Shown: in pieces, positions 23,787 to 39,815 of the stretch
Numbering within the stretch: position 1 is the stretch's first letter
Layout: each line of letters opens with the position of its first letter
Assembly (NCBI GenBank): GCA_046545575.1
Contig: JBKGZM010000001.1
Location: 2,729-66,728, forward strand
Source: Dehalococcoidia bacterium
GTDB lineage: Bacteria > Chloroflexota > Dehalococcoidia > SZUA-161 > SpSt-899
Reading direction: 5' to 3'
DNA length: 64,000 bases
The notes under the pieces: model-generated
Told to the model about the DNA's origin: nothing
Seen by the model: the letters and a program-made list of their open reading frames with translations, nothing else
Databases searched by the model: none
Translations under genes and position numbers: made by a program

Positions 23787-23863
23787 CTGTGGCAACCGAG
23801 GTCGGTTAATCAACCTTAACTGACCTTTAATCAATGAAATCAATATACAAAAGGGGTGTGCAA

Positions 23864-26800
23864 ATGGAAGAGCCAAGAATCGGTGTTTACATTTGTCACT
23901 GTGGAAGTAACATCGCGGGAACGGTGAACTGTGAGGACGTATCCGCTTTCGCGCAGGATCTGCCTGGAGTGACCATAGCTCGCGACTACAAGTACATGTG
24001 TTCGGACCCCGGGCAGAACCTCATCAAAGAGGACATCAAAAACCTCAATGTCAACCGTGTTGTTGTAGCTTCCTGCTCGCCGCGGATGCACGAACCCACA
24101 TACCGACGCTGTATTCAGGAAGCAGGATTAAATCCATACCTGTTTGAGATGGCCAATATCAGGGAACATTGCTCCTGGGTTCACCCAAACGAACCTGAGA
24201 AAGCTACGGAAAAGGCTAAAGCGCTGGTTCGCGGCGCAGTACAGAAAGTCTACTATCACGAGCCACTGGAGACAAGGGAGGTTCCGGTAAATCCCAGTGT
24301 CTTGATTATGGGTGGAGGAATTGCAGGTATCCAGGCCGCTCTCGAAATCGCCAGTTCTGAAAACAAGGTATACTTGGTAGAACGTGAGCCTTCTATTGGC
24401 GGTCACATGGCTCAACTCGACAAGACCTTCCCTACCCTTGACTGTTCAGCCTGTATCCTCACCCCCAAGATGAGTCTTGTAGGAGCTCATCCAAATATCG
24501 AGCTCCTGACTTACAGTGAGGTAGAAGAGGTAGCAGGCTATGTTGGCAATTTCGAGGTTAAGGTAAGGGAAAAGGCTCGATTTGTCGATGAAGAAAAATG
24601 CACCGGATGCGGTGAATGTACCAGGGCATGTCCTGTAGAAATCCCTTCCAAGTTCGAGTTGGGAATGACCAACACAAAGGCCATAGCAACGTCCTTCGCC
24701 CAGGCCGTTCCCAATGTCGCTTCCATCTATAAACGTGAGGGAGGTGCCTGGCCCCCCTGTCGCTTTACATGCCCCGCCGGAGTAAATGCTCAGGGGTACA
24801 TCGCCCTCATCTCTCAGGGCAATTTCAAGGAAGCGGCCGAGGTCGTGAGAAAAACCATGCCGTTCCCAGGCATTCTGGGGAGGGTATGTACACATCCATG
24901 CGAATCGGAGTGTGAGCGAGCAAAGCTCGATGAACCAATGGCCATCAGGGCTCTTAAGCGTTCAGCTGCTGACTATGAGAGGAAAGTGGGCAGGGAAAAA
25001 GCAAGCCCTGTAGAGATAACCAAGAAAGGGAAGATCGCGGTCGTGGGTTCAGGCCCAGCCGGCCTCGCATGTGCCTATGACCTCATACGCGAAGGATACC
25101 CTGTGACGGTATTTGAGGCAATGCCCGAAGCCGGGGGAATGCTTCGGTACGGCATTCCCGAATATCGCTTGCCAAAGGACGTGCTGGACAGCGAGATCAG
25201 CTACATAGAGGAACTTGGAGTAGAGATCAAGACAAACAATCCGATCAACGATATCGGTCAGCTTTTCAACGAGGGGTATAAAGCCATATTCATGAGTAAC
25301 GGCGCCTGGACAAGCCAGAAGATGAGAATAGAAGGGGAGGATGCAAACGGGGTGCTCCATGCGCTGGACTTCCTGAAGCGCGTCAATTCCGGAGATCAAA
25401 CCCAAATAGGCAAAAAGGTAGCCGTTGTCGGCGGTGGCAATGCTGCCATCGATGCTGCCAGGGTAGCATGGCGATTAGGCGCTGAGGAGGTAAGCATCGT
25501 CTACCGGCGCTCACGGGAAGAGATGCCCGCGGAAAAGAGTGAAATCGAGGAAACTGAAAGGGAAGGTATCAACATACAGTTCCTGGCAGCACCAAACAAA
25601 GTTCTAAGTGAAGGCAATAAGGTCAGTGGCATAGAGTGCACGCGAATGGAACTAGGTGAGCCTGATGCCAGTGGCCGACGTCGGCCCGTGCCCGTAAAAG
25701 GGTCTGAGTTCACTCTGGATGTAGACAACGTCATCATTGCCATCGGACAGGGCGTCGACAAGGAAGCACTGCCTGAGGAGCTTGAATACACTCAATGGAA
25801 TACCCTCTCAGTTGATGAGATTACTTTGGAGACGAACATCGACGGCGTATTCGCCGGTGGTGACGTAGTTTCCGGCCCAGCCTCGGTAATCGACGCTGTT
25901 GCTGCAGGCAAGGAAGCCGCTACATCAATTGACCGCTACATCAGGGATGTGGACATGAAAGAGGGCAGACCAGAGGAGAGGAGAAAGGTGTCCGATGTGC
26001 CCAAAGAGGGTGTTGCCAGTGCTTCGAGAAGTTCCATGTCCACCATTGAAGTTGATAAGCGGGTCCGTTCCTTCGCTGAAGTCGAGCAGGGCTTTGATGA
26101 AAATACAGCAATAGAGGAAGCCAAGCGCTGCTTGAATTGTGCCGGGTGTGCGGATTGTCGAGAGTGCGAGAAGGTCTGTGAGGCCGGGGCCATCAATCAC
26201 AGCATGCAGGACGAGATCCTGAACCTGGAAGTAGGAAACATAATCGTAACCACTGGCTTCCAAGCCTTCGACCCAACACCGATTTACCAATACGGGTATC
26301 ATCGCCTGGATAATGTTGTTACCGGCCTGGAGTTCGAACGTCTGATAAGCGCATCAGGTCCAACCGAAGGGCATATAGCACTTAAGAATGGAGAAGAGCC
26401 GGATAGTGTGGCTATTATCCATTGTGTAGGAAGCCGGGATGCCAAATACCACGAGTACTGTTCGCGGGTCTGCTGCATGTATTCCATGAAGTATGCCCAT
26501 TTACTCAGGGAACACGTCCCGAACGCCAGGATATATGAATTCTACATTGACCTGAGATGCTTCGGCAAAGGCTATGAAGAATTCTACAACCGGATGCTGA
26601 AGGAGGATATCACCTTCATTCGCGGCCGGCCCGGCGAGATCACACAGGAGGACGGCAAACTGGTAGTCCATGCCGAAGATACGCTGGCTTCCATCATGCG
26701 TGATATACCGGTCGACATGGCAATCCTGAGCATAGGCCTGGAGCCACAGGAAGATGCCGATGAGGTCTCCAAACTACTCAAGATGAGCAGAAGCGCGGAT

Positions 26801-27205
26801 GGCTTCTTTATGGAGAGTCATCCCAAGCTAGAGCCAGTATCCACACCCACAAAGGGAGTATTCATCGCCGGCTGCTGCCAGGGGCCCAAGGATATCCCTG
26901 ACACGGTAGCTCAGGCTTCAGGGGCAGCGGCGGAGGCTCTGGCCATGATCAGCAGAGGAAAGGTTGAAGTGGAAGCAGCTACCTCCGTGGTGGACGAAGA
27001 CCTTTGCTCCGGCTGCAAAACATGTGTATCACTATGCCCCTATGGCGCGATTTCGTTCGATGAAGAGAAAAAGGTGGCTGTCATAAACGAGGTGCTGTGC
27101 GAAGGGTGTGGTCTATGTGCCGCTACCTGCCCTTCAGGCGCTATCAAGGCCAGGCACTTCACGACACAGGAGATCATGGCGCAGATCGAGGGCATTCTGG
27201 TTTGA
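23864..27205 (+). CDS. hdrL: HdrA-like flavoprotein with an inserted NfnB/GltD-like NAD(P)H:FAD module (HdrL-type)
   Basis: HdrA N-terminus (RIGVYICHCGSNIAG; IMGGGIAGIQAA). A GltD-like insert spans about 24750-25950 (PPCRFTCPAG; VVGSGPAGLACAYDL; VVGGGNAAIDAAR). It is followed by an HdrA C-terminus (HCVGSRD..YCSRVCCMY) and a terminal 2x[4Fe-4S] region (CSGCKTCVSLCP; CEGCGLCAATCP). ATG 23864 follows AAAGGGG. Confidence 0.8.
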   Translation: MEEPRIGVYICHCGSNIAGTVNCEDVSAFAQDLPGVTIARDYKYMCSDPGQNLIKEDIKNLNVNRVVVASCSPRMHEPTYRRCIQEAGLNPYLFEMANIREHCSWVHPNEPEKATEKAKALVRGAVQKVYYHEPLETREVPVNPSVLIMGGGIAGIQAALEIASSENKVYLVEREPSIGGHMAQLDKTFPTLDCSACILTPKMSLVGAHPNIELLTYSEVEEVAGYVGNFEVKVREKARFVDEEKCTGCGECTRACPVEIPSKFELGMTNTKAIATSFAQAVPNVASIYKREGGAWPPCRFTCPAGVNAQGYIALISQGNFKEAAEVVRKTMPFPGILGRVCTHPCESECERAKLDEPMAIRALKRSAADYERKVGREKASPVEITKKGKIAVVGSGPAGLACAYDLIREGYPVTVFEAMPEAGGMLRYGIPEYRLPKDVLDSEISYIEELGVEIKTNNPINDIGQLFNEGYKAIFMSNGAWTSQKMRIEGEDANGVLHALDFLKRVNSGDQTQIGKKVAVVGGGNAAIDAARVAWRLGAEEVSIVYRRSREEMPAEKSEIEETEREGINIQFLAAPNKVLSEGNKVSGIECTRMELGEPDASGRRRPVPVKGSEFTLDVDNVIIAIGQGVDKEALPEELEYTQWNTLSVDEITLETNIDGVFAGGDVVSGPASVIDAVAAGKEAATSIDRYIRDVDMKEGRPEERRKVSDVPKEGVASASRSSMSTIEVDKRVRSFAEVEQGFDENTAIEEAKRCLNCAGCADCRECEKVCEAGAINHSMQDEILNLEVGNIIVTTGFQAFDPTPIYQYGYHRLDNVVTGLEFERLISASGPTEGHIALKNGEEPDSVAIIHCVGSRDAKYHEYCSRVCCMYSMKYAHLLREHVPNARIYEFYIDLRCFGKGYEEFYNRMLKEDITFIRGRPGEITQEDGKLVVHAEDTLASIMRDIPVDMAILSIGLEPQEDADEVSKLLKMSRSADGFFMESHPKLEPVSTPTKGVFIAGCCQGPKDIPDTVAQASGAAAEALAMISRGKVEVEAATSVVDEDLCSGCKTCVSLCPYGAISFDEEKKVAVINEVLCEGCGLCAATCPSGAIKARHFTTQEIMAQIEGILV

Positions 27206-27223
27206 GCTTTGTCATGTGTGGAT

Positions 27224-28312
27224 ATGGAACAGATTCAGTCTCCGCGGATGCAGCAAGAGCAGCGGCATGTTCTTCGCATAGAGCAAGCCAACCTCCTGCA
27301 GATGTCTGAGGAGGAATTTCAGAGCTTAGTTGCTCAAATAGAAAAGAGCTCTCTCTTTAAGAAGCTCTACAAATCAGAAAACATAATCCATTACCAGCGA
27401 TTCCCCAAGACTGATATCTCCGCTCGCTGCTACGAGCTCAAGGAAAACATCCTCGCTGACGAGGGCTCTCTCGATGTGGAGCCCCTTCTGCAGCAGAGAG
27501 GGGAAGTGGTGGAGCTTATACAAAAGATAGGGCTGGAGAAGTTCAAGGAGTTCTTCCTCTTTCCCGACCCCGAGATTACCGCAGAGCATATCGCACAGGA
27601 GTGTAATATAAGTCTCTCCCAGGTGCACAGGATAAACGAATTCATCACCGACTTTTCCGCCATGAGCGAGTTCTATCATCCTTCAGCGATCAGCCCGGAG
27701 GAGAGAGTCCATTACTCCAAGGTCGCTTCAATAGAACGAGCACATGACGGCTTTGTTATCGGCTATTACCCCCCATCACTTGCCAGGGGAAGATATTCGA
27801 TTAACTACGAAAAATTTGAGAAAATAATAAATGAGAGGTTAACTGAGGCAGAGGGTAAGGAAGCAAGGAAGCTGTTCAGGAAACTGGAGTTGATAAATGT
27901 GCGCAAAGATACGCTGACGCAGATATTGCAAAATGTGGTGGAGAAGCAGAAACTATATTTGGACACCGGGGATGCGATGTCTCTCCTTCCGTTAAGTCAG
28001 AAGGAAATGGCCAACCAAATAGGACTGGATTCAAGCACGGTCAGCCGTACTATTCACGGGAAAAGCGTGGAGACGCCATGGGGAGAGGAGAAACCGATTA
28101 AAGATTTCTTCGCACATCCCAAGGACTTCAAGAAAGAGGCGCTTAAGAGAGTCTTTGAATCCGAAAGACGACCTCTCAGCGACCAGGCGATCAAAGAGAA
28201 ACTGGAGGAGTCAGGTATATTACTTTCCCGGCGCTCGATAGTGAACTTGAGGCAGGAGCTGAGAATGCCTTCATCACGAAAACGGTTTAAGAAACAGGAA
28301 AGCACAAAATGA
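27224..28312 (+). CDS. rpoN: Compact sigma-54 (RpoN) family sigma factor homolog
   Basis: Gln/Leu-rich region I (MQQEQRHVLRIEQANLLQMSEEEF). HTH segment LPLSQKEMANQIGLDSSTVSRTIHGKSVETPWGEEKPIKDFF. RpoN-box-like C-terminus PLSDQAIKEKLEESGILLSRRSIVNLRQELRMPSSRKR, compared with the canonical ARRTVAKYR. About 362 aa. Confidence 0.75.
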   Translation: MEQIQSPRMQQEQRHVLRIEQANLLQMSEEEFQSLVAQIEKSSLFKKLYKSENIIHYQRFPKTDISARCYELKENILADEGSLDVEPLLQQRGEVVELIQKIGLEKFKEFFLFPDPEITAEHIAQECNISLSQVHRINEFITDFSAMSEFYHPSAISPEERVHYSKVASIERAHDGFVIGYYPPSLARGRYSINYEKFEKIINERLTEAEGKEARKLFRKLELINVRKDTLTQILQNVVEKQKLYLDTGDAMSLLPLSQKEMANQIGLDSSTVSRTIHGKSVETPWGEEKPIKDFFAHPKDFKKEALKRVFESERRPLSDQAIKEKLEESGILLSRRSIVNLRQELRMPSSRKRFKKQESTK

Positions 28313-30234
28313 GTGTTGTGTACACCATAAAGGATAAATGCAAGGAATGCTACGCATGTGTCCGTAGCTGCCCTGTAAAAGCTATTAGGGTTAGAGAGCG
28401 GAAAGCCGAGGTCTTGAGGGATCGGTGTGTGGCCTGCGGCACGTGTATTAATGTCTGCCACGCAGGCGCAAAGAAATACGAAAGCGATATCGGGCTTGCT
28501 TGGCAATTACTGCGTGAAAATGCACCTGTCATAGCCGTTTTGTCGACCTCGTTCCCAGCAGGCTTTCCTGAAGTCCGCCCGAGGCAGCTCGTCACTGCCC
28601 TTAAGAAACTCGGATTCAACGAGGTTATGGAGGCTGCTTTTGGCGCTGAACTGGTTGCGCGCGAATACCGCAGGCTCTTCGATGAGAACAAAAAGGCTCC
28701 AATGCTCTCTTCTACCTGCCCGGCGTTTGTATCCATGATAGAGAAATTCTATCCTCAATTGATAAACAACTTAGCGCCCACTGTCTCACCAATGATAGCC
28801 ATGGGCCGAGTTATCAAGTGGAAATACAATCCAAATGCTAAAGTTGTCTTTGTGGGCCCATGTATTTCTAAGAAACTCGAGAAGATAGATGAAAAACTCT
28901 CTGGCGTAATCGATGCCGTCCTTACCTTTCCCGAGTTAAAGGAGATGTTTGCAGCCAAAGAGATTGATCCTGCCTCTGAAGAGGAATCACAATTCTCCGG
29001 GCCAAAGTCCAACCTCGGGCATCTATTTCCCATCTCCGGAGGATTGCTAAAGGTGACCGGAATTCCCGGCGACATTTCCACTACTGACGTCGTCTGGGCC
29101 GAAGGAAGGAGACGAGCTCGATGGTGTGTTGATGATCTCGCCCAGAACCGGATCGCCACCCGATTCCTAGATGCCTACTTCTGTGAAGGATGTATCAACG
29201 GCCCAGCAATCGGTAATGAGTTACGTACAACGGAAAAAAGAAGGATCGTTACCGAACACTTTGTGAATGAGTCTAATCCTGCGCAGGCTGAGAAAGACAT
29301 CCAAGAGTACAGCGGAATCGATCTGAGTCGCAAGTTTACAAATAGATTCAGCTCTCTGGAGCAACCCCGTGAGGAAGATGTAGAGGAAGTCCTTAATCAG
29401 ATCGGTAAGGCATCTCCAGAAGATCAACTTGACTGTGGCGCCTGTGGCTATGCTACCTGTAGGGAGCTGGCCGTAGCAGTGTCTCAGGGGCTGGCCGAGG
29501 TAGAGATGTGCTGGCCATATCTGTTTCGCAAGCTCAAGGATGCTCAGGAACAACTTATTCAAGCGGAGAAATTAACATCACTGGGGCAAATGGCGGCGGC
29601 TATCGCCCATGAAATCAATAATCCACTGGCGGGAGTTCTGACCTACACCAAACTTCTGATGAAAAAGGCCGAAAACGATTCTCTGACCAAGGAGATGTCC
29701 AGGGAGTATCTCCCGAAGATGGAGTCAGAGGTGACCCGCAGCTCCCGAATAATTCGCAATCTGCTGGATTTTGCCAGACAAACGGAGCCGATGTTACGTG
29801 AAACAGACATAAATCAAACCATAGAAAAAGCTCTATCTCTCGTAGGACACCAGGCGCAGATACAGAATGTCGAGGTCAAAAAAGAGCTGAGCCCTGACTT
29901 GCCCAAAATCACAGCTGATTTCGACAAATTACAGCAGGTGTTTACCAACCTTATTCTGAACGGGGTTCAGGCGATGCCGGATGGTGGAACGCTCACGTTA
30001 CGGAGCCAGCCCACGGGCAATGGCCATGTCAGGATTGACATTCAGGACACCGGATATGGCATACCCAAAGAGAACTTTCGCAATCTGTTTACGCCTTTCT
30101 TCACCACCAAAGAAAAGGGGAAGGGGGTAGGCCTGGGACTGGCTGTAGTGCATGGCATTATAGAGCAGCATAAAGGAAAGATCAATGTCCAGAGCGAGGA
30201 AGGGAAGGGAACGAGGTTCAGTATCTATTTGTAA
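28309..30234 (+). CDS. Sensor histidine kinase with an N-terminal 2x[4Fe-4S] ferredoxin, an [FeFe]-hydrogenase H-domain-like module and an RnfB-type Fe-S motif
   Basis: CKECYACVRSCP and CVACGTCINVC. H-cluster-like motifs SSTCPAFV, VGPCISKKLE and FCEGCINGP. CGACGYATCRELA...C. HisKA H-box AAIAHEINNPL. HATPase N and G boxes (NLILNGVQAM; DTGYGI; GKGVGLGL). The start overlaps the rpoN-like stop as ATGA. Confidence 0.8.
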   Translation: MSVVYTIKDKCKECYACVRSCPVKAIRVRERKAEVLRDRCVACGTCINVCHAGAKKYESDIGLAWQLLRENAPVIAVLSTSFPAGFPEVRPRQLVTALKKLGFNEVMEAAFGAELVAREYRRLFDENKKAPMLSSTCPAFVSMIEKFYPQLINNLAPTVSPMIAMGRVIKWKYNPNAKVVFVGPCISKKLEKIDEKLSGVIDAVLTFPELKEMFAAKEIDPASEEESQFSGPKSNLGHLFPISGGLLKVTGIPGDISTTDVVWAEGRRRARWCVDDLAQNRIATRFLDAYFCEGCINGPAIGNELRTTEKRRIVTEHFVNESNPAQAEKDIQEYSGIDLSRKFTNRFSSLEQPREEDVEEVLNQIGKASPEDQLDCGACGYATCRELAVAVSQGLAEVEMCWPYLFRKLKDAQEQLIQAEKLTSLGQMAAAIAHEINNPLAGVLTYTKLLMKKAENDSLTKEMSREYLPKMESEVTRSSRIIRNLLDFARQTEPMLRETDINQTIEKALSLVGHQAQIQNVEVKKELSPDLPKITADFDKLQQVFTNLILNGVQAMPDGGTLTLRSQPTGNGHVRIDIQDTGYGIPKENFRNLFTPFFTTKEKGKGVGLGLAVVHGIIEQHKGKINVQSEEGKGTRFSIYL

Positions 30235-30273: not shown

Positions 30274-31674
30274 ATGCAGGATGCTGACACCACACGACAA
30301 TCCCCGGATATGAAAAGCCAGATCAAAATCCTCGCTGTCGATGATGAAGAGACAGTCCGCGAATCACTAAAGGACTGGCTCACCGACTCAGGGTATCAGG
30401 TGCTGGTCGCTGAAGACGGATACAAAGCACTCGACATTATTAAACGTGAGAAGATAGGCATACTCATAGCCGATTTAGTAATGCCGGGCATAGACGGCAT
30501 TGAACTCATGAGAAGAACCAAGGAAATCTCCCCTGACACGGGTGTAATCATCATAACTGCGTACGGAAGCGTACCCAGTGCTGTGTCCGCGATGCATGAA
30601 GGGGCCTATGACTATATCGAGAAGCCATTCTGCCCCGAACGGGTGGAGTCGCTCCTTGAGAAGTTGATGGAACACCAGAGATTGGTAGAGGAAAACCGAG
30701 TTCTCCGCGAACAATTAGAAGACCATTACCGTTTTGAGAACATCATCGCTAAGAGCCACAAAATGCACAAGATTTTCGATGTGGTCAAAACCGTGGCCAA
30801 GAGCAATGCCAGTGTCCTCATCACCGGCGAAAGCGGGACCGGCAAGGAGCTTATTGCACGGGCCATCCATAATCTAAGTCCCCGCCGGGACAAGCCTTTC
30901 GTGGATGTGAGTTGCGCTGCATTACCTGAGAGCCTCCTCGAGAGCGAGCTATTCGGGCATGAGAGAGGGGCTTTTACCAGCGCTGTAAATCAAAGAAAGG
31001 GAAGATTTGAACTCGCTCACCGCGGGACCCTTTTCCTCGATGAAATAGGAGAGATAAGCACCAACATGCAGGTACACCTGCTCAGAGTCCTGGAGGAACG
31101 GGAGTTCACTCGCGTCGGGGGCACTGAGCCCATAAAGACCGATGTACGCCTCATTTCAGCCAGCAACAAAAACCTGAAGGAGGCGATAAACGAGGGAGAA
31201 TTCAGGGGAGACCTCTACTATCGCCTGAACGTAGTCAGCATTGAACTCCCGCCCCTCAAGGAAAGAAGCGAAGATATCCCCCTGCTGGCTCAACATTTTC
31301 TGAACAAGTTCGCCCGGGAGAACCAGAAAGGTGAGATTAAGCTTTCTTCCGAGGCCATGGACTTCCTTATGAAGTACGACTGGCCCGGGAATGTAAGGGA
31401 GCTAGAGAACACTATTGAGAGGGCGGTCGTGCTCACACAGGATAGCACGATCAACGTAGATGATCTGGCAACACAAAACCTACCTTCTGCTCAGCAATCT
31501 TCAAGTGAAGGAAGCCTTGAAGATATGGAAAAGCAACACATTGTAAATGTCCTCAAGGAGACCAGCGGGAACCACACCGAAGCAGCGAAACGGCTCGGGA
31601 TCACCCGGATGACCCTTTACAAGAAAGTCAAGAAATACGGAGTGGATGTAAACAAATTAAGCAGTGCTGTATAA
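30274..31674 (+). CDS. Sigma-54-dependent response regulator (NtrC family: REC, AAA+ and Fis-type HTH)
   Basis: REC domain (ILAVDDEE..IADLVMPGIDG), Walker A GESGTGKE, GAFTGA-loop variant ERGAFTSA, an ESELFGHE box and a C-terminal HTH (NHTEAAKRLGITRMTLYKK). Confidence 0.9.
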   Translation: MQDADTTRQSPDMKSQIKILAVDDEETVRESLKDWLTDSGYQVLVAEDGYKALDIIKREKIGILIADLVMPGIDGIELMRRTKEISPDTGVIIITAYGSVPSAVSAMHEGAYDYIEKPFCPERVESLLEKLMEHQRLVEENRVLREQLEDHYRFENIIAKSHKMHKIFDVVKTVAKSNASVLITGESGTGKELIARAIHNLSPRRDKPFVDVSCAALPESLLESELFGHERGAFTSAVNQRKGRFELAHRGTLFLDEIGEISTNMQVHLLRVLEEREFTRVGGTEPIKTDVRLISASNKNLKEAINEGEFRGDLYYRLNVVSIELPPLKERSEDIPLLAQHFLNKFARENQKGEIKLSSEAMDFLMKYDWPGNVRELENTIERAVVLTQDSTINVDDLATQNLPSAQQSSSEGSLEDMEKQHIVNVLKETSGNHTEAAKRLGITRMTLYKKVKKYGVDVNKLSSAV

Positions 31675-31734: not shown

Positions 31735-31768
31735 GTATTAGACACGCAGAACACCCGTAGCAACCCAG

Positions 31769-31817
31769 GGGAGGAGGGCGGTCCGCCGACGGCGGACCGC
31801 CCTCCTCCCTTTTCTTT
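31769..31817 (+). terminator. Strong rho-independent terminator after the kinase/activator genes
   Basis: A 20-bp perfect stem (GGGAGGAGGGCGGTCCGCCG-A-CGGCGGACCGCCCTCCTCCC) followed by TTTTCTTT. Confidence 0.8.
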
Positions 31818-31820
31818 AAT

Positions 31821-31837
31821 TGGCAACAAAATTGCAT
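31821..31837 (+). promoter_or_regulatory. Sigma-54 (-24/-12) promoter
   Basis: TGGCAACAAAATTGCAT matches the consensus TGGCACG-N4-TTGCW with exact GG-to-GC spacing. It lies 26 nt upstream of ATG 31863 and an RBS GGAGGTG follows it. Confidence 0.65.
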
Positions 31838-31862: not shown

Positions 31863-32936
31863 ATGATGAAGGGAGAAGAGAACAAAAGAAATGAAATCCA
31901 ACCTAAGGAGGTGGACAATATGAAACGGCAACCTGTACTGATAGTTGAGGATGAAAACATCATGCGAGAGTCCCTCAGGGACTGGCTGGCAGACAGCGGT
32001 TACGAGGTAACCACAGCCGAAGATGGTGAACAAGCGCTGCAAATGCTCGGAGAGCAAGAATTCGGCGTGGCGGTTCTTGACCTCAAACTACCGGGTAAGG
32101 ACGGCGTTGAGGTCCTGAAAGAAGCCACAAACCGGCAACCGAACCTGAAGGGCATCATTATCACCGCCTATCCGTCTGTGGAGACGGCGGTAGAGGCGAT
32201 GAAGTACGGCGCAACCGACTACCTGGTCAAGCCGGTCTCCCCGGATGAACTCGAGGACCTGATACAAAAGACCCTGGGTCCCGTACAGGCCGAGATCAGG
32301 CCACAGCCCGCTGCCGAGGAAGCTGTAGAGACCGAAACAGAAGCGGCCGAAGTCGAGCAACCGGCAGTTGAAGAGGAAGTCCCCAGCATAAGCGAAGCCG
32401 AAGCCCCTGCACACATGCAGGAGGGGAAGAACCTCTTGAAGGCTGGGCGCTTCGATCAAGCGAAAAGGGAATTCCAGGCCGTGATAAGCGTACAGCCTGG
32501 CAACCTGGAAGCACGGCAGTACCTCCGCCAAGCGAAGGAAGAGGTAGCAAAATCAGCAAAAGCTGCTGAAGCCCGTCCAGAAGTGGGCAAGCCATGCGTG
32601 TGGATGAAGCTGGGACTCGTCTCCTACCGCATGTGCAATCGGGACTACGATTGCTTCGCCTGCGAGTTCGACCAGATGATGCAGGAGAGATTAGCAACCG
32701 AGGAAGCGGAAGTAGACAAGGCAGTGGAGCGACTCAAGGAATTGCCAGGCAACCAGCGGGTTTGCCGCTACGCCCTTAAGGGAGAGGTCGCTCACCGGAC
32801 ATGTAGCCACCTTTTCAACTGTGCACAGTGTGAGTTCAATCAAATGATGGAAGATGCATTCCTGCAAAAGCTGACTGCGGAGCAGGAAGCGCTGCGCAAG
32901 AAGAAAGACAGTTGGTGGTGGAGTTACTGGAGTTAA
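31863..32936 (+). CDS. Response-regulator receiver protein with an acidic linker, a TPR-like segment and a duplicated C-x12-C-x5-C-x2-C module
   Basis: REC domain (VLIVEDEN..VLDLKLPGKDG..ITAY). Two copies of C..x12..C.x5.C.x2.CEF[DN]QMM. A Trp-rich tail SWWWSYWS. ATG 31863 lies 6 nt after GGAGGTG, whereas the track start is a GTG at 31848. Confidence 0.75.
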   Translation: MMKGEENKRNEIQPKEVDNMKRQPVLIVEDENIMRESLRDWLADSGYEVTTAEDGEQALQMLGEQEFGVAVLDLKLPGKDGVEVLKEATNRQPNLKGIIITAYPSVETAVEAMKYGATDYLVKPVSPDELEDLIQKTLGPVQAEIRPQPAAEEAVETETEAAEVEQPAVEEEVPSISEAEAPAHMQEGKNLLKAGRFDQAKREFQAVISVQPGNLEARQYLRQAKEEVAKSAKAAEARPEVGKPCVWMKLGLVSYRMCNRDYDCFACEFDQMMQERLATEEAEVDKAVERLKELPGNQRVCRYALKGEVAHRTCSHLFNCAQCEFNQMMEDAFLQKLTAEQEALRKKKDSWWWSYWS

Positions 32937-32952: not shown

Positions 32953-32986
32953 TATAGCCCGCCCGGGTATACCCGGGCGGGCTATA
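32953..32986. repeat. Perfect 34-nt palindrome
   Basis: TATAGCCCGCCCGGGTATACCCGGGCGGGCTATA, immediately followed by TGTATAAT (a -10-like sequence). Confidence 0.9.
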
Positions 32987-33062: not shown

Positions 33063-33530
33063 ATGGCTTATGAGGCGGTTGAAACGAGTACAGTAGAGGG
33101 GATCATAAATAGATACTCAGGAGACAGTTCAGCCCTTATTCAAGTCCTTCTGGACATCCAGCGTGAAAATCGGTGGTTGCCAAAAGACACCCTGAAACTG
33201 GTCAGTCAAAGTCTCGGTGTTCCATTAACTCAAGTCTACCATATAGCTAGCTTCTACAAGGCCTTCAGTCTTATACCCAAAGGGCGAAATCAGGTTACGG
33301 TTTGCCTGGGTACTGCGTGCCATACCAGGGGTGCGCCTCGTCTTCTGGACAGGGTTTCCACAAGCCTGAAGCTGAACCCGGGCGAGACCTCGGAAGACAT
33401 GCGCTTTAGCCTGGACACGGTCAACTGCCTCGGCTGCTGTGCTCTGGGACCAGTGATGATGGTCGGGGAGCAGTACTACAGCAACCCTTCCACGGAAGAG
33501 TTGGAGAATATCTTCTCCGCATGCGAATGA
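33063..33530 (+). CDS. nuoE: NuoE/HoxE-like [2Fe-2S] thioredoxin-fold subunit
   Basis: VCLGTACHTRGA ... VNCLGCCALGP in a 155-aa protein with RBS AAGGAGG. Confidence 0.85.
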   Translation: MAYEAVETSTVEGIINRYSGDSSALIQVLLDIQRENRWLPKDTLKLVSQSLGVPLTQVYHIASFYKAFSLIPKGRNQVTVCLGTACHTRGAPRLLDRVSTSLKLNPGETSEDMRFSLDTVNCLGCCALGPVMMVGEQYYSNPSTEELENIFSACE

Positions 33531-33560
33531 TCCCGCAATCAATATATTAAGGAGGGAGCT

Positions 33561-35489
33561 ATGCCAAAATTGAACTCAGCCTCTGACCTGGAGAATTTGA
33601 GACAAGAAGTGGTAAGCAAAAGAGACCCAAACAAGCTCTGTGTTACCATATGCTCGGGCACAGGATGCCGCGCATATGGTAGCGAACAGGTCGCTGAAAC
33701 CTTTGCCGAAGAGCTCTCAAAAAACGGGCTTAAAGATAAGGTCGACATACGTCGGACGGGGTGCCACGGGTTCTGCGAGAGAGGCACCCTCGTCGTCATT
33801 TTCCCAGAGGAAATATGTTACCTGAAGGTCAAACCAGATGATGTTCCCGAAATCGTCTCCACCACCTTACAGGAAGGGAAGGTAGTGGATCGGTTACTGT
33901 ACGAAAAAAGCGACGGCGAAAAAGTAGTTCACGAAAGCGAGATTCCCTTTTATAGCAACCAGAATAGAACAGTGTTCGGGAACAATAGATTTATTGACCC
34001 CAAGAAAATAGACGATTATCTGGCCCTGGGCGGCTACAAGGCCATTTCCAAGGCGCTTTTCGACCTCTCCCCCGAGCAAGTAATGGACGAAGTTAAGGCC
34101 GCCAACCTGAGGGGAAGAGGAGGCGGGGGATTCCCCGCAGGAATAAAGTGGGAGACCACTCGTGATGCTCCGGATGAACCAAAGTATGTCATCGTCAACG
34201 CCGATGAGGGCGACCCGGGCGCTTACATGGACAGGAGCTTGCTCGAGGGCAACCCCCACAGCGTGCTGGAGGGCTTGACTATCGGGGCCTACGCCATTGG
34301 CTCACACCAGGGCTTTATTTATGTGCGTCAGGAATATCCCCTAGCTGTGGAGAATCTGAACATCGCAATAGAGCAGGCACGGGAACACGGACTTCTCGGG
34401 GAAAATATCCTCGGCTCGGGTTTCAATTTCGATGTCACGGTACATCGTGGTGCTGGGGCTTTTGTTTCGGGAGAGTCCAGCGCTCTCATGACCGCAATAG
34501 AGGGCAAGGTAGGCGAACCCAGGCCAAAATACATTCGCACCGCCACAAGCGGCATCTGGGACAAACCCAGCGACCTGAACAACGTTGAGACCTGGGCCAC
34601 TGTTCCCTTGATAATCAACAAAGGCGCTGACTGGTTTACTGGTATCGGGACCGACAGAAGCAAAGGAACAAAAATATTCTCACTCGTGGGCAAAGTAAAT
34701 AATACAGGGCTTGTAGAGGTGCCCATGGGGACCACCATTCGTGAGATAATCTACAATATCGGCGGAGGCATTCCTGGAGGGAAGAAATTTAAGGCCGTTC
34801 AGACCGGTGGTCCCTCTGGAGGGGTTATTCCCGAAAGCCTCATCGACCTCCCCGTCGACTACGATGAGCTGGCCAGGGCGGGCTCGATGATGGGCTCTGG
34901 CGGCATGATCGTGATGGACGAAGATACCTGCATGGTAGATATCGCCAGGTATTACCTCAACTTCCTGGCAGGAGAATCCTGTGGCAAGTGCGTCCCATGT
35001 CGGGAGGGAATCTACCAGATGCTCAAGATACTGAACAGGATCTGCGATGGGGAAGGGCAAGATGGAGACATCGAACTCCTGGAGGAAATCGGGGAGGTGG
35101 TCAGGGACTTCTCGCTCTGCGCACTTGGTGCCACAGCCCCTAACCCTGTGCTCAGCACAATCTCGTATTTCCGCGACGAGTACGAGGCCCACATAAAGGA
35201 GAAGCGTTGCCCAGCTGGCGTTTGCAAGTCGCTTATCAGCTACTACATCGATCCGGATAAGTGTCAGGCCTGTATGATCTGCCTCAGGAACTGTCCTGTT
35301 GGAGCCATAAGCGGCGATAAGAACGTGATCCATGTCATAGATCAAGATAAGTGTACCAAATGCGGAACCTGCTTTGAGGTTTGCCCCTCACGCTTTGGTG
35401 CCGTTAAAAAGATCTCTGGAGAGGAACTGCCAGAAGCAGTCCCGGCAGGAACGCCGGTAAAGCGAGAAAAAGGAGGCAAGAATGGCTGA
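33561..35489 (+). CDS. nuoF: NuoF/HoxF-like NAD(P)H-binding FMN/Fe-S subunit with an N-terminal [2Fe-2S] domain and a C-terminal 2x[4Fe-4S] region
   Basis: GRGGGGFPAGIKWE, ESCGKCVPCREG, and C-terminal CQACMICLRNCP and CTKCGTCFEVCP. Confidence 0.9.
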   Translation: MPKLNSASDLENLRQEVVSKRDPNKLCVTICSGTGCRAYGSEQVAETFAEELSKNGLKDKVDIRRTGCHGFCERGTLVVIFPEEICYLKVKPDDVPEIVSTTLQEGKVVDRLLYEKSDGEKVVHESEIPFYSNQNRTVFGNNRFIDPKKIDDYLALGGYKAISKALFDLSPEQVMDEVKAANLRGRGGGGFPAGIKWETTRDAPDEPKYVIVNADEGDPGAYMDRSLLEGNPHSVLEGLTIGAYAIGSHQGFIYVRQEYPLAVENLNIAIEQAREHGLLGENILGSGFNFDVTVHRGAGAFVSGESSALMTAIEGKVGEPRPKYIRTATSGIWDKPSDLNNVETWATVPLIINKGADWFTGIGTDRSKGTKIFSLVGKVNNTGLVEVPMGTTIREIIYNIGGGIPGGKKFKAVQTGGPSGGVIPESLIDLPVDYDELARAGSMMGSGGMIVMDEDTCMVDIARYYLNFLAGESCGKCVPCREGIYQMLKILNRICDGEGQDGDIELLEEIGEVVRDFSLCALGATAPNPVLSTISYFRDEYEAHIKEKRCPAGVCKSLISYYIDPDKCQACMICLRNCPVGAISGDKNVIHVIDQDKCTKCGTCFEVCPSRFGAVKKISGEELPEAVPAGTPVKREKGGKNG

Positions 35490-36117
35490 AGTTACCTTAA
35501 CCATAGATGGAAGAGAGGTCAAAGCAGAGGAAGGAACGACCATTCTGGAAGCGGCACAGAGCGCAGGTTTTGATATCCCCAATCTCTGTTACCACCCCAT
35601 GCTAGCCCCCTACGGCGCTTGCCGGCTGTGCATGGTGGAGATAGAGCGGGGCAAGCGAACACGGTTGGTGTCCTCCTGTGTATATCCTGTAGAGGACGGG
35701 CTCACCGTATATACAGAGTCTGACCGAGTGGTCAAGGGACGCAAGATGTTGCTGGAGTTCCTGTGGGCACGTGCACCCGGCTGTAAGGCGATAAGGGACT
35801 ACGGCACCAGATATGGCATAAGCGGTATGGAATCCATACGAGAATTCGGCGAAGCCTATGGGGCAGCTGCAAGCAAGACCAAGTTCGAGATAGAGCCAAC
35901 CTTCTGCGTTCTTTGCGGCCTGTGCGTTCGGTATTGTGCAGAGATCAAGAAGAAGAACGCCATCGGATTCATTGGCAGGGGCACGGAACGGGAGGTAATG
36001 TTCTTCCCTGAGATAGCGCGCGAGGAATGCCCACAATGCGAGGAGTGCTTCTCCGTGTGCCCAACAGGTCTGGTCCGGCTCATGTTTGACCTAGTGAAAG
36101 AGCCGCAGTCCCCGTAA
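35482..36117 (+). CDS. hoxU: NuoG N-terminal / HoxU-like [2Fe-2S]+[4Fe-4S] subunit
   Basis: VTLTIDGREVKAEEGTTILEAA..CYHPMLAPYGACRLCMVEI, followed by CVLCGLCVRYC and CPQCEECFSVCP. Confidence 0.8.
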   Translation: MAEVTLTIDGREVKAEEGTTILEAAQSAGFDIPNLCYHPMLAPYGACRLCMVEIERGKRTRLVSSCVYPVEDGLTVYTESDRVVKGRKMLLEFLWARAPGCKAIRDYGTRYGISGMESIREFGEAYGAAASKTKFEIEPTFCVLCGLCVRYCAEIKKKNAIGFIGRGTEREVMFFPEIAREECPQCEECFSVCPTGLVRLMFDLVKEPQSP

Positions 36118-36388: not shown

Positions 36389-36790
36389 ATGCAGGAAAGA
36401 TTGAGAGTATTCAAAGCCCTCTCCGAGGAAACAAGGATGAGGATTATGGGGGTGCTCCTCCAGCGAGAATGTTCAGTTTGTGAAGTGGCCCAGTCACTGA
36501 GTATTTCCCAAACCAGGGCTTCCCGCGGGTTAACTGCTCTCCATAACGCAGGGCTATCCAAGACAAGACGGGATGGACTATGGGTCCTTCATTCCATAGA
36601 TAAAGATACCGTTGAGAAATCTTGCCCCGGACTTCTGAACCTCCTTGATGAATGCCTGAATGATGAAGAAATATGCGTCATTGATCGGGAGAGACTGCGC
36701 CACGCAGTGCGGGAAAGCCCCTGCAACTATATCCTCGAATTGTCAGAAAAGGAAGAAGCATACTCTTGCGAAAGCGATAGTGTTGGCTAA
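36389..36790 (+). CDS. ArsR/SmtB family transcriptional regulator
   Basis: FKALSEETRMRIMGVLLQRECSVCEVAQSLSISQTRASRGLTAL (a winged HTH with CxxC in place of the ArsR CVC) and a Cys-containing C-terminal extension. Confidence 0.8.
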   Translation: MQERLRVFKALSEETRMRIMGVLLQRECSVCEVAQSLSISQTRASRGLTALHNAGLSKTRRDGLWVLHSIDKDTVEKSCPGLLNLLDECLNDEEICVIDRERLRHAVRESPCNYILELSEKEEAYSCESDSVG

Positions 36791-36823
36791 TAAATAATAA
36801 TTCGAAACTCGAAAGGGGGGAAG

Positions 36824-37237
36824 ATGGACCAGTTTGAACCGAAGATATTGGGATTTTGCTGTAACTGGTGCTCTTATGCTGGCGCCGACCTCGCTGGCAC
36901 TTCCCGAATGCAGCAAGCGACCAATGTGCGGATAATCAGGGTCATGTGTAGTGGCAGAGTTGACCCGACATTCATACTCAAAGCCTTTGAAGCAGGGGCT
37001 GACGGCGTGCTCATCGCCGGTTGCCATCCCGGAGATTGCCACTACATCGCAGGCAACTACAAAACTGCCCGGCGAATCTCTCTCCTCCAGAATATGTTAG
37101 AGCAACTCGGAATAGAGAAGGAGCGAGTCCGTATGGAGTGGGTTTCCGCCGCCGAGGGAGCGAAATTCACACAGGTAGTCAACGATTTTACAAAAACCCT
37201 CAAAGAATTGGGCGCAAGCCCAGTTAAAGCCCAATAA
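36824..37237 (+). CDS. mvhD: Methyl-viologen-reducing hydrogenase delta subunit (MvhD/FlpD family)
   Basis: ILGFCCNWCSYAGADLAG...VMCSGRVDPTFILKAFEAGADGVLIAGCHPGDCHY. Confidence 0.9.
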   Translation: MDQFEPKILGFCCNWCSYAGADLAGTSRMQQATNVRIIRVMCSGRVDPTFILKAFEAGADGVLIAGCHPGDCHYIAGNYKTARRISLLQNMLEQLGIEKERVRMEWVSAAEGAKFTQVVNDFTKTLKELGASPVKAQ

Positions 37238-37258
37238 ATTAAAAGGAAAGGAGCGAAC

Positions 37259-38236
37259 ATGGCTAAGCCGAAGGTTGCTTTTTACTGGAACGCATCGTGT
37301 GGCGGATGTGAGGAGACGGTCGTTGATCTGAATGAAGATATACTGAAGGTCGCAGACGCCGTCGACATAGTGCTATGGCCTGTCGCGCTGGATTTCAAGA
37401 GGAAGGATGTCGAAGCCCTGGCCGACGGGGAGATAGCAGTCAGCTTCATCAACGGGTCCATAAGACTGGAAGAACAGGAGGACATGGTAAAACTCCTCAG
37501 GCAGAAATCCGGACTGGTAGTGGCGTTTGGGGCATGTGCTCACATCGGCGGAATACCCGGACTGGGGAATTTCTGGAACAGGGAAACGATATTCGATCGG
37601 GCATATAAGGAAGTCCCAAGCGTTGAGAATCCGGAGGGAACACTGCCTCAGGAGAAAACAACAGTTGACGGCTGTGAACTAACCCTCCCGGAATTCTACG
37701 ACACAGTCAAGACATTGGACCAGACAATTGACGTGGATTACTACCTCCCGGGATGCCCCCCACCACCCGACCTCGTCATGAATGCCATAAACGCGATTTT
37801 GCAAGGCGATTTGCCCGAAAAGGGATCAGTACTCGCCCCTGCCAAAGCCCTGTGCGATACATGCCCTAGAAGGGACTCAAAGCCGGAGAAAATATCGATC
37901 TCCGAGGTGAAGAGGCCGTGGGAAATCAAGATGGACCCTGAGACATGCTTCCTGGCACAGGGCGTGATCTGTCTCGGTCCCGCTACTCGCTCAGGATGCG
38001 GTGAGACCTGTATCAGAGCCAACATGCCCTGCCGTGGATGCTTCGGCCCGGTGGACGGAGTTGCGGATCAGGGCGCAAGGGCCCTCTCGGCAATCGCCTC
38101 CATACTGGGACTCGAGGGCGAGGAAAATATGCCCGAGCAGGACGTCCAGAAGCTGGTCGATCAAATCGTAGACCCCGCTGGGACATTCTACAGGTTCGGT
38201 CTCCCAGCTTCTCTACTTCGAAGAAAGAAGATGTAG
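37259..38236 (+). CDS. mvhG: [NiFe] hydrogenase small subunit, group 3c (MvhG-like)
   Basis: KVAFYWNASCGGCEETVVDL. At 325 aa it is much larger than HoxY. It has C-terminal Cys clusters (CDTCPR; CLGPATRSGCGETCIRANMPCRGCFGP). Confidence 0.85.
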   Translation: MAKPKVAFYWNASCGGCEETVVDLNEDILKVADAVDIVLWPVALDFKRKDVEALADGEIAVSFINGSIRLEEQEDMVKLLRQKSGLVVAFGACAHIGGIPGLGNFWNRETIFDRAYKEVPSVENPEGTLPQEKTTVDGCELTLPEFYDTVKTLDQTIDVDYYLPGCPPPPDLVMNAINAILQGDLPEKGSVLAPAKALCDTCPRRDSKPEKISISEVKRPWEIKMDPETCFLAQGVICLGPATRSGCGETCIRANMPCRGCFGPVDGVADQGARALSAIASILGLEGEENMPEQDVQKLVDQIVDPAGTFYRFGLPASLLRRKKM

Positions 38237-38268
38237 TAACTCGGAACTGACAGCACAAGGAGGAGATA

Positions 38269-39735
38269 ATGAAACAGATAACCATAGATCCGATTACCAG
38301 ACTTGAGGGACATGGCAAGATCGAGATCTTCCTCAATGATGAGGGAGAGGTCCATCAAGCTTATCTCCAGGTACCCGAACTTCGGGGTTTTGAGAAGTTC
38401 TCTGAGGGAAGGCCGGCAGAGGAGATGCCCAGGATCACCACCATGATCTGCGGGGTCTGTCCCACTGCTCACCACATGGCCGCCACCAAAACGCTCGATG
38501 ACCTGTGGAAGGTGGAGCCAACCTCAACGGCGAAGAAAATAAGACGTTTGATGTACAATGCCTTCCAGGCGGAAGACCATCTGCTCCACTTCTTCTTCCT
38601 CGGCGGCCCCGATTTCATCGTCGGCCCGACGGCACCGGCTGCGGAAAGGAATATACTGGGCGTTGTCGGCAAAGTCGGGACGGAGGCCGGTGGCAAAGTA
38701 ATAGAGGCCAGAAAGAGGCTCAGAAACGTGCTGAGGATAATCGGGGGCAAACCGGTTATGCCCACCTGTGGGCTTCCCGGTGGCGTGTCGAAGGCGATTA
38801 CCGAGGAGGAAAGACAAAGTTGTATAGAGGCAGGGGAATATGCAGTTGACCTTTGCCAGTTTGCCTTAAAGGCCTTCGATGATATAGTGCTGAACAACAA
38901 GGAATATGTCGACCTTATAACTGGTGACGCCTTTACCCACAGGACCTACTACATGGGGCTCGTGGATGAAAACAACAAGGTAGACTTCTACGATGGCATG
39001 ATCAGAGTGGTTGACCCCAATGGTAAGGAATTCGCCAAATTCAGGCCACAGGAATACCTCGACCACGTCAGGGAGCATGTCGAACCGTGGAGCTACATCA
39101 AGTTCTGTTATCTTAAGAACGTGGGATGGAATGGTTTCACCGATGGGGAAGACAGCGGGGTTTACAGAGTGGCACCACTCGCCCGACTCAACGCAGCGGA
39201 TGGGATGCCCACCCCGCTTGCTCAGGAAGCTTACAACAAGATGTACGAGACCCTGGGAGGCAAGCCGGTCCACCATACTCTGGCTTACCACTGGGCCCGG
39301 CTGATTGAGGCGCTTTCCGCTTCGGAGCAGGTGCTGGACCTTGCCAAAGATCCTGAGCTTACCTCCGATGACATCGTAAACCTGCCAACTGCAACTCCGA
39401 AGGAGGGCGTCGGTGTGGTTGAAGCTCCCAGAGGGACCCTGTTCCATCACTATGAGACAGATGAGAAAGGTATCCTGACAAAGGTTAATTTGATCGTGGC
39501 CACAACCAATAACGCTGCTCCCATCAATATGTCGATCGAGAAAGCCGCCAGAGCACTCATACACAACGGAGAGGTTAACGACGGGCTTCTCAACATGGTT
39601 GAGATGGGATTCAGGGCTTACGATCCTTGCCACGCCTGTGCAACCCATAGCTTGCCAAGTGAAACGCCGCTGGAGGTCACAGTCCGCGATTCCCAGGGCA
39701 ATGAGCTTAGAAAATTGACCAGAAACCTCGGTTAA
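38269..39735 (+). CDS. mvhA: [NiFe] hydrogenase large subunit, group 3c (MvhA-like)
   Basis: RLEGHGKIEI, N-terminal Ni-binding motif MICGVCPTAHH, C-terminal DPCHACATH and a cleavable extension. Confidence 0.9.
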   Translation: MKQITIDPITRLEGHGKIEIFLNDEGEVHQAYLQVPELRGFEKFSEGRPAEEMPRITTMICGVCPTAHHMAATKTLDDLWKVEPTSTAKKIRRLMYNAFQAEDHLLHFFFLGGPDFIVGPTAPAAERNILGVVGKVGTEAGGKVIEARKRLRNVLRIIGGKPVMPTCGLPGGVSKAITEEERQSCIEAGEYAVDLCQFALKAFDDIVLNNKEYVDLITGDAFTHRTYYMGLVDENNKVDFYDGMIRVVDPNGKEFAKFRPQEYLDHVREHVEPWSYIKFCYLKNVGWNGFTDGEDSGVYRVAPLARLNAADGMPTPLAQEAYNKMYETLGGKPVHHTLAYHWARLIEALSASEQVLDLAKDPELTSDDIVNLPTATPKEGVGVVEAPRGTLFHHYETDEKGILTKVNLIVATTNNAAPINMSIEKAARALIHNGEVNDGLLNMVEMGFRAYDPCHACATHSLPSETPLEVTVRDSQGNELRKLTRNLG

Positions 39736-39756
39736 AACCGGGGTGCCTGTTCACCG

Positions 39757-39815
39757 CGTCATCGCGAGTTCGCCCCTGGCGGACTCCGAGGGCCCACCAT
39801 AGGTGGGCAATGACG
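39757..39815. repeat. REP-like palindromic element
   Basis: Termini CGTCATCGC and GCAATGACG are inverted, and there is an internal hairpin GCCCACC-ATA-GGTGGGC. Confidence 0.6.

Follow-up and report, generated by a model that had tools for sequence, protein, structure and literature searches.

The data described here concern an open reading frame on the forward strand (31863-32936) of a 64-kb stretch of DNA from a Dehalococcoidia bacterium (contig JBKGZM010000001.1 of assembly GCA_046545575.1, positions 2,729 to 66,728), which is referred to as a whole as the window. The frame lies between the gene of an NtrC-type sigma-54 activator and a set of NuoE-like, NuoF-like and 2Fe-2S/4Fe-4S subunit genes. 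From its first ATG it translates to a protein of 357 residues, exactly as given in the initial annotation, in which a receiver domain (REC) is joined to two copies of a unit with four cysteines. For this unit, C-x12-C-x5-C-x2-C-E-F-[DN]-Q, the name MOD is coined here. The comparisons below indicate that MOD is a real and undescribed domain, supported by both sequence conservation and a confident structural model, and that the protein is a response regulator, in a branch of a two-component system, with a novel and family-defining output domain.

Architecture of the protein

The initial annotation had described a receiver, an acidic Pro/Glu/Ala linker, a duplicated four-cysteine module and a SWWWSYWS end, and all of these were recovered by the translation, by Pfam (PF00072) and by a motif scan; a TPR-like unit at residues 178-234 had been overlooked. 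REC is the only significant Pfam domain of the protein (105.2 bits against a cut-off of 30.2). It carries the acidic pair E29-D30, the phospho-acceptor D73, T101 and K123, which align with the same residues in the receiver of the adjacent NtrC-type protein, and by its sequence the protein is, as a receiver protein, an ordinary member of the CheY-like superfamily with an intact receiver. The TPR-like unit was matched by TPR_2 at E 4.2e-5 (23.8 bits, under the 27-bit cut-off), was modelled by AlphaFold2 as three helices with a predicted local distance difference test score (pLDDT) of about 90, and is also conserved in stand-alone homologues that consist of this unit and two MOD units (TPR-MOD2). 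The C-terminal helix is basic (RKKK), and the SWWWSYWS tail directly precedes the stop codon. This Trp-rich tail had been taken as a defining feature, which the homologues do not support: only 11 of the 120 that are full-length and 3 of the 128 that stand alone have it, and it is therefore a minority trait.

The view that no DNA-binding or enzymatic output can be recognised was upheld by Pfam and NCBIfam. Sigma54_activat and HTH_8 have no match in the protein, and the NtrC/AtoC models of NCBIfam match its REC part only; as the AAA+ domain and the helix-turn-helix are both lacking, the protein is not an NtrC-type activator. An artefact of gene calling or a frameshift was considered as the source of the REC-module fusion and was rejected, since more than 120 full-length homologues have the same architecture.

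The real start of translation is probably the in-frame ATG at 31920 (MKRQPVLIVEDE...), which would give a coding sequence of 31920-32936 and a protein of 338 residues in place of 357. This ATG is placed 8 nucleotides past AAGGAGGT. Almost all homologues retain '...KEV..MK(P/Q)xVLIVEDE', several gene calls begin at that Met, and the recurrent KEV in the predicted N-termini is the Shine-Dalgarno sequence AAGGAGGT translated. The downstream start is considered probable because the Met is conserved in the homologues and the Shine-Dalgarno sequence is read through as K-E-V. Gene callers have extended the family by about 19-25 codons 5' of the conserved Met (31863-31919 in the window).

The MOD domain

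MOD is defined as a unit of about 35 residues, C-[VI]-W/R-[YH]...x12-C-x5-C-x2-C-[ED]-[FY]-[DN]-Q, with four invariant cysteines, which usually occurs in tandem about 57 residues apart. The spacing C-x12-C-x5-C-x2-C occurs just twice when the window is read in all six frames. This pattern is not due to chance, because hhalign recovers the two units as homologues of one another (probability 99.2 %, E 9e-20) and all eight cysteines are invariant across 52 diverse relatives having 27-62 % identity to the module of the window. Three further positions are conserved at 90 % or more in the 52-sequence alignment, namely the W after the first cysteine of unit 1, the R after the first cysteine of unit 2 and the Q four residues past the fourth cysteine of unit 2. 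The spacing between the units is 57 residues in 116 of 120 homologues, and the window protein was recovered by the profile of the MOD family at E 4.4e-46.

The 118-residue module was modelled by AlphaFold2 with the 52-sequence alignment at a mean pLDDT of 91.5; a first run on the full-length protein with 13 aligned sequences gave a poor module (pLDDT 40-55) and was not used for this part. In the fold predicted for each unit, as assigned by DSSP, a short strand or bridge adjoins the first and the second cysteine, the third cysteine lies in a loop and the final C-x2-C stands by the start of a helix.

No match to MOD was found in Pfam or NCBIfam with the protein, the module or its relatives, nor among PDB sequences by phmmer or profile. 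A Foldseek search with the module model returned nothing in PDB with E<1 (best E 7.9) and nothing in BFVD, and a literature search found no description of MOD or of the gene cassette in which it lies. The initial annotation had named a match of the module to a characterised zinc-finger family as the result that would speak against its reading; such a match was looked for with Pfam, NCBIfam, PDB, Foldseek and hhalign, and none was found. The profile search and the survey of genomic context that it proposed were run as well; they gave no known family for the module and a conserved context of cassette and redox operon.

Small regulatory domains with four invariant cysteines and with x2 and x5 spacings are known from the CHY zinc finger (PF05495), the WhiB-like proteins and the Fe-S sensors of the NreB/FNR type, and MOD is like them in these respects. 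The sole recurrent signal is zf-CHY, with sub-threshold matches in 24 of the 52 members (best E 1.3e-3, cut-off 31.3 bits). Kinship with zf-CHY was nevertheless rejected as unsupported, since hhalign against the CHY region of Pirh2 gave a probability of 0.4 %. WhiB has no Pfam match, and the ligand order of MOD is reversed relative to its C-xn-C-x2-C-x5-C. Families of the Fer4 kind have no match in the protein, whose C-x12-C-x5-C-x2-C differs from the ferredoxin pattern C-x2-C-x2-C-x3-C-P, and no fold in PDB matches. As far as these comparisons reach, the output domain falls outside the known families of zinc fingers, ferredoxins and WhiB proteins. It is plausible that MOD binds a metal, either Zn or an Fe-S cluster, since eight invariant cysteines argue for a metal site. 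With its C-x2-C by the start of a helix, its aromatic core and its acidic neighbours it has a zinc-finger-like look, while its restriction to anaerobes and its insertion behind a 2x[4Fe-4S] domain hint at Fe-S instead.

Size and architectures of the family

The MOD profile was searched against 1.84 billion representative proteins at E<1e-3, and the family comprises 316 representative clusters, seen only in anaerobe lineages and in sediment metagenomes. The unusual or unique architecture that the initial annotation implied is in fact that of a large family, as REC-(TPR)-MOD2 alone has more than 120 full-length homologue clusters. These are 53-67 % identical to the window protein, come nearly all from Dehalococcoidia and bear in their source annotation just the name 'response regulator'. 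Other members lack the TPR and join REC to either a single MOD unit or a pair. Stand-alone TPR-MOD2 proteins have about 205-210 residues and are annotated as 'hypothetical' or 'TPR protein'; a word-index homologue search with the diverse module alignment returned almost solely such proteins from Dehalococcoidia. In TPR-MOD2-HisKA-HATPase (P0171) MOD takes the N-terminal sensor position of a histidine kinase. The most diverse group is MOD2 with a GcvH-like domain (MOD2-GcvH), which includes a version with four MOD units, and in Fer2_4-Fer4-MOD-GcvH the domain directly follows a 2x[4Fe-4S] domain.

In some MOD2-GcvH proteins (P0172, P0179, P0183, P0187 and P0195) an extra Cys-rich N-terminal extension of about 60-80 residues was observed, which starts MKCPFLEE..V..YC.A and has no Pfam match.

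The regulatory cassette and its promoter

The coordinates of the features of the locus are collected in Table 1. The genomic context of REC-TPR-MOD2 was surveyed in one scan at one genome per species, giving 80 loci, nearly all from Dehalococcoidia or from metagenome-assembled genomes of Dehalococcoidales, and synteny was followed by tblastn of the neighbours in the window against these loci and checked against gene calls. The order of sigma-54-like factor, Fe-hydrogenase-like kinase, NtrC-type activator and REC-TPR-MOD2 recurs in about 50 Dehalococcoidia species genomes.

Table 1. Features of the REC-MOD gene and its cassette in the window
Feature	Position	Strand	Evidence
Compact sigma-54-like factor, 367 residues, first gene of the cassette	27209..28312	+	Pfam Sigma54_DBD 1e-25
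Histidine kinase with N-terminal 4Fe-4S/[FeFe]-hydrogenase-like/'FeS' sensor	28309..30234	+	Pfam Fe_hyd_lg_C 4.4e-53, FeS, HisKA, HATPase_c
NtrC-type sigma-54 activator (REC-AAA+-HTH_8), first response regulator of the pair	30274..31674	+	Pfam, synteny
Intrinsic terminator of the NtrC-type activator gene, 20-bp stem, 16 GC pairs, T-rich tail	31768..31810	+	terminator scan
Sigma-54 type -24/-12 element TGGCAACAAAATTGCA	31821..31836	+	motif scan
Shine-Dalgarno AAGGAGGTGG and probable true start codon ATG at 31920	31905..31922	+	sequence, homologue conservation
REC domain, residues 25-134	31935..32264	+	Pfam PF00072, E 2.7e-30
Acidic Pro/Glu/Ala-rich linker, predicted disordered, residues ~140-171	32280..32375	+	AlphaFold2 pLDDT ~30
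TPR-like three-helix unit, residues 178-234	32394..32564	+	Pfam TPR_2, AlphaFold2 helices
MOD unit 1, C245-x12-C258-x5-C264-x2-C267-EFDQMM (CVWMKLGLVSYRMCNRDYDCFACEFDQMM)	32595..32681	+	motif, alignment, hhalign
MOD unit 2, C301-x12-C314-x5-C320-x2-C323-EFNQMM (CRYALKGEVAHRTCSHLFNCAQCEFNQMM)	32763..32849	+	motif, alignment, hhalign
Long C-terminal helix with basic patch, then Trp-rich tail KKKDSWWWSYWS	32850..32933; tail 32910-32933	+	AlphaFold2 helix 85-117 of module model
Stable 15-bp GC-rich hairpin without U tract, between REC-MOD stop and NuoE-like gene	32953..32986	+	126-nt intergenic fold
NuoE-like, NuoF-like and 2Fe-2S/4Fe-4S subunit genes	33063..36117	+	Pfam

The sequence TGGCAACAAAATTGCA begins 10 nucleotides past the terminator, and no other exact TGGCA-N6-TTGCW occurs in the window. 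Between the NtrC-type gene and the REC-MOD gene this element, typically TGGCAAGAAAATTGCA, is present in 34 of 49 distinct orthologous loci, so that the earlier statement that the gene is the first behind a sigma-54 promoter is supported, and the conserved consensus is TGGCA-N6-TTGCA. When 1.97 Mb of related loci were scanned on both strands, 43 of the 53 strict elements fell 400 nucleotides or less upstream of a REC gene of this family, which makes the MOD gene the main recognisable sigma-54 target of the cassette.

The statement that this is a second receiver beside a single kinase was likewise supported, by the conserved order of the cassette and by the 47 % overall identity of the two receivers. 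In two-component specificity alpha-1 carries most of the kinase-recognition residues, and in this helix (RESLxDWLxDSGY) 11 of 13 positions match, a near-identity that would fit one kinase serving both regulators. The reading of the cassette as a branched system with two regulators is thus well supported by comparative genomics, and the kinase of the cassette is the likely phosphodonor of REC-MOD. Its sensor region is built of 2x[4Fe-4S], a part like the large subunit of [FeFe]-hydrogenase and PF04060 'FeS'; it retains GPCISKK and FCEGCINGP and reads SSTCP at the site that we take to be TSCCP in catalytic enzymes. In these features it resembles the putative sensory (group C) hydrogenases, here fused to a kinase.

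The first gene of the cassette has Sigma54_DBD as its only Pfam match, and TIGR02395 gives 105.7 bits, under the 277-bit cut-off; by sequence the product looks like a dedicated minimal sigma-54. Its N-terminus is short, Gln-rich and region-I-like, and it is the first cassette gene in about 45 Dehalococcoidia loci.

The NuoE/NuoF/2Fe-2S genes are probably co-transcribed with REC-MOD, and this order recurs in loci L005, L022, L040, L054, L075, L078 and L080. Behind the cassette the genes vary: there may be NuoE/NuoF/2Fe-2S, HdrD/HdrA/MvhD, a second and shorter REC-MOD paralogue or more REC genes, or convergent Mvh or Nuo genes. In some genomes (L004) a paralogue of the kinase core lies directly upstream of REC-MOD. 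The 126-nucleotide intergenic sequence behind the REC-MOD gene folds at -39.3 kcal/mol (z = -5.2). Its hairpin (Table 1) was not called by the terminator scan; it may stabilise the mRNA or terminate part of the transcripts, and so set how much regulator is transcribed relative to enzyme.

On the forward strand the cassette of the window is flanked by two sets of redox genes (22306-27205 and 36389-44114). The upstream set has HdrC-like and HdrB-like (CCG) genes and a 1123-residue HdrA/GltD fusion; the downstream set has an ArsR-type regulator, MvhD, MvhG-like and MvhA-like [NiFe] hydrogenase genes, an NfnB/GltD-like flavoprotein, an MvhD-polyferredoxin and a MetF-C-terminal-like gene (DUF5981). 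By gene content both sets together form a redox island of the Hdr-Mvh-MetV type.

MOD beside other signalling pairs

For the MOD2-GcvH proteins 524 or more metagenomic matches were confirmed, and 80 loci were retained from these. Their genes take a position equivalent to that of REC-MOD, in the order kinase, NtrC-type activator, in some loci an M54 peptidase, MOD2-GcvH, and Hdr or Nuo genes. The kinases have PAS/GAF or other sensors, and the activators are 45-57 % identical to that of the window. A kinase/NtrC pair is present in 41 of the 46 loci longer than 5 kb, and in many of them Hdr/MvhD or NuoE/F genes then follow. In 48 of 70 loci the MOD2-GcvH gene is preceded by a strict sigma-54 element at a distance of 320 nucleotides or less, in most cases 80-110 nucleotides before the start, and these elements make up 48 of all 57 strict elements in 1.09 Mb. 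The shared position of the promoter and the shared pairing with kinase and activator indicate that MOD is found, in two phyla, in a gene driven by sigma-54 that adjoins an orthologous kinase/activator pair. GcvH, Hdr and Flx are not mentioned in the D. vulgaris sigma-54 regulome paper.

The MOD2-GcvH alignment has no invariant Lys in the GcvH-like domain; the position that we take to be that of the lipoyl-Lys, from a manual alignment to the E. coli GcvH, is D in P0182 and is not conserved. The GcvH-like domain fused to MOD is therefore probably not a lipoate carrier. LbpA is the lipoate-carrier protein of Hdr-like systems (PMC6067878). The MOD relatives are like GcvH and LbpA in having a GcvH-fold domain encoded beside Hdr-like genes; they are unlike them in that no Lys is invariant, and the window protein has no GcvH domain at all.

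Between the NtrC-type gene and MOD2-GcvH there is often an archaemetzincin-like gene of about 180 residues with HELGHxxGLxHC...CVM and a C-terminal FCxxC (L097, L101, L111, L115, L119, L121, L136, L142, L159 and L164). In L088 (8946-9467) a neighbouring gene is Peptidase_M54 by Pfam.

The stand-alone TPR-MOD2 genes always diverge from a NarL-type regulator with a HisKA_3 kinase, which was seen in about 22 loci (L001-L003, L024, L025, L033, L037, L038, L050, L056, L058, L062, L068-L072, L079 and L081-L084). In L001-L003 the HisKA_3 kinase is a membrane protein that has no obvious sensor domain, its N-terminus being no more than about 100 hydrophobic residues, and the downstream genes are the housekeeping genes thiL-like, tsaE and tsaB-like. 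In L090/L075/L078, TPR-MOD2 is fused to a kinase core and lies next to a NarL-type regulator, directly behind the cassette and the NuoEF operon.

Fusions to the Fe-S subunit of enzymes

Both parts of the protein are found elsewhere in one chain with an Fe-S subunit. In L005 (13441-14442; also seen as L053, on the same contig), L075 and L078, one open reading frame joins REC to the 2Fe-2S/4Fe-4S subunit that follows NuoF, and these receivers are 61-66 % identical to REC of the window. In P0274 and P0296 the same kind of Fe-S subunit has a C-terminal MOD-GcvH, directly behind a GltD/HdrL-like or a NuoF gene. As REC and MOD have each been joined covalently to a NuoEF-type Fe-S subunit, the fusions are sparse evidence for a physical or functional link, and they suggest the possibility that electron-bifurcating complexes are under direct control by two-component phosphorylation.

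Proposed function and alternatives

We tentatively read the window protein as an auxiliary response regulator of a hydrogen- or redox-sensing, sigma-54-dependent two-component cassette, whose TPR-MOD2 part would dock on an enzyme Fe-S subunit, and we give this reading somewhat less than an even chance. The [FeFe]-hydrogenase-like kinase would phosphorylate both NtrC and REC-MOD. Phosphorylated NtrC, together with the sigma-54-like factor of the cassette, would switch on the operon of REC-MOD and the NuoE/NuoF/2Fe-2S complex. The four cysteines of each MOD unit would hold a single metal centre, Zn or Fe-S, and TPR-MOD2 would be a module for protein docking, possibly also for redox reading, that contacts the Fe-S subunit of the flavoprotein complexes encoded alongside. 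This docking would in turn be tuned when REC is phosphorylated, which would add post-translational control of the enzyme or feedback on the kinase to the transcriptional control. That REC-MOD acts on the flavoprotein complexes is plausible and is supported by two independent kinds of fusion, REC-Fer2/Fer4 and MOD-GcvH.

Several observations weigh against this docking on an enzyme. The fusions to enzyme subunits are few: for MOD they are 2 of 150 among the matches listed, and for REC there are four loci on three contigs. MOD tracks the kinase/activator pairs more faithfully than any one enzyme, the genes behind it differ and in some loci are convergent (L012, L073 and L074), MOD also forms the N-terminal part of a histidine kinase, and the stand-alone TPR-MOD2 genes have a NarL-type system and housekeeping genes as neighbours but no redox enzymes close by. 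As MOD follows the signalling pair over the enzymes, its partner could be the kinase or the activator and not the enzyme.

This last possibility may be put as a feedback regulator of the signalling pair, which would be induced by phosphorylated NtrC from the sigma-54 promoter and act on the kinase, on NtrC or on both, as a phosphate sink or through binding by TPR-MOD2, in a circuit like that of PspA and PspF and with MOD being an input or sensor module of kinases. We regard it as a possible but rather doubtful explanation. The tie of MOD genes to kinase/NtrC pairs in two phyla, even where enzyme genes are absent or convergent, speaks for it, and so do the sensor position of TPR-MOD2 in P0171, the stand-alone genes diverging from a NarL regulator and a membrane kinase with no obvious sensor, the near-identical alpha-1 of the two receivers and the sigma-54 promoters, which in these loci serve hardly any genes but those with MOD. 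The fusions of REC and of MOD-GcvH, on the other hand, point to the enzyme, a strictly conserved module of eight cysteines would be superfluous for a pure phosphate sink, and there is no homology to PspA or to known anti-activators. Docking on the enzyme and feedback on the signalling pair are compatible if the redox state of the complex is sensed by MOD and passed on to the signalling proteins.

It is quite unlikely that the protein is an electron-transfer or assembly subunit, in which MOD would hold Fe-S and act as a redox-active accessory subunit or maturation factor of NuoEF/Hdr-type complexes, with REC as a minor add-on. REC-MOD is the first gene of an enzyme operon, MOD sits right after the 2x[4Fe-4S] domain in Fer2-Fer4-MOD-GcvH, and the family is limited to anaerobes in the data seen, all of which would agree with such a role. 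However, no ferredoxin-type motif or Fer4 match is present, the long disordered linker and the TPR favour an adaptor over a fixed wire, the downstream enzymes differ among the loci, and MOD is also found far from any redox genes.

Still less probable is a zinc-finger transcription or RNA-binding factor, in which MOD2 would be a nucleic-acid-binding Cys4 pair in a second transcription factor of the cassette that binds DNA under REC phosphorylation; the Cys4 spacing with its last C-x2-C by a helix start, the weak zf-CHY matches and the basic C-terminal helix are in its favour, but no zinc-finger family matches significantly by sequence or fold, the acidic unit (CEFDQ, D/E-rich) is atypical of DNA binders, and fusions of MOD to GcvH-like domains, Fe-S subunits and a kinase core are hard to square with DNA binding. 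Both the electron-transfer and the DNA-binding roles are less consistent with the range of fusions than docking on the enzyme or feedback on the signalling pair.

Relation to known systems

In the response regulators RssB, CheY and DivK the output is interaction with another protein and not binding to DNA. The window protein is like them in its CheY-like receiver with all phospho-acceptor residues, in having no DNA-binding or enzymatic domain and in its adjacent kinase of cognate type, and its output is presumed to bind a partner. It differs in that its output consists of a TPR-like unit and two MOD units, which have no homology to the PP2C-like domain of RssB or to other known outputs.

Hydrogen is sensed by HoxBC-HoxJ-HoxA of Cupriavidus necator and by sensory group C [FeFe]-hydrogenases such as HydS. 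With these the cassette shares a hydrogenase-like sensor coupled to a histidine kinase and an NtrC-type sigma-54 activator over hydrogen or redox genes. In the cassette, however, the sensor is fused to the kinase, a compact sigma-54-like gene belongs to the set and an extra MOD-bearing regulator is present; we know of no description of any of these three features for Hox or HydS.

PspA is the first gene of a sigma-54 operon and inhibits its activator PspF. The likeness lies in the circuit only, where the first gene of the sigma-54 operon, adjoining the activator gene, encodes a non-DNA-binding regulator and an autoregulated feedback logic may be suspected; no relationship of sequence or fold exists.

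Significance of the data

Dehalococcoidia and the syntrophic and sulfate-reducing Desulfobacterota live close to the thermodynamic limit, and to our knowledge the regulation of their hydrogenase, Hdr and NuoEF-type bifurcating modules is essentially unknown. On the evidence of gene content and gene order, MOD is widespread but unannotated and accompanies sigma-54 two-component systems that adjoin hydrogen- and NADH-linked redox operons in anaerobes. The data provide annotators with a new domain model, for a family of 316 clusters with no counterpart in Pfam, NCBIfam or PDB, and they describe a regulatory cassette of four genes with one clear sigma-54 target, namely the MOD gene with the redox operon behind it. 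As a small, soluble and confidently modelled domain, MOD is a target for experimentalists.

A more far-reaching proposal, which we consider unlikely as it stands, is that MOD is a new metal-cluster domain (Fe-S or redox-active Zn) for sensing and docking, which physically couples two-component signalling to flavin-based bifurcating complexes, both those of the NuoEF/HydBC type and those of the Hdr/Mvh type. REC-MOD and REC-Fer2 proteins would exert post-translational control on the enzymes by His-Asp phosphotransfer, and the TPR-MOD2-kinase fusions would report the redox state of the complexes to the kinases. If this is true, there would be a direct layer of phospho-control on electron bifurcation in Dehalococcoidia and Desulfobacterota.

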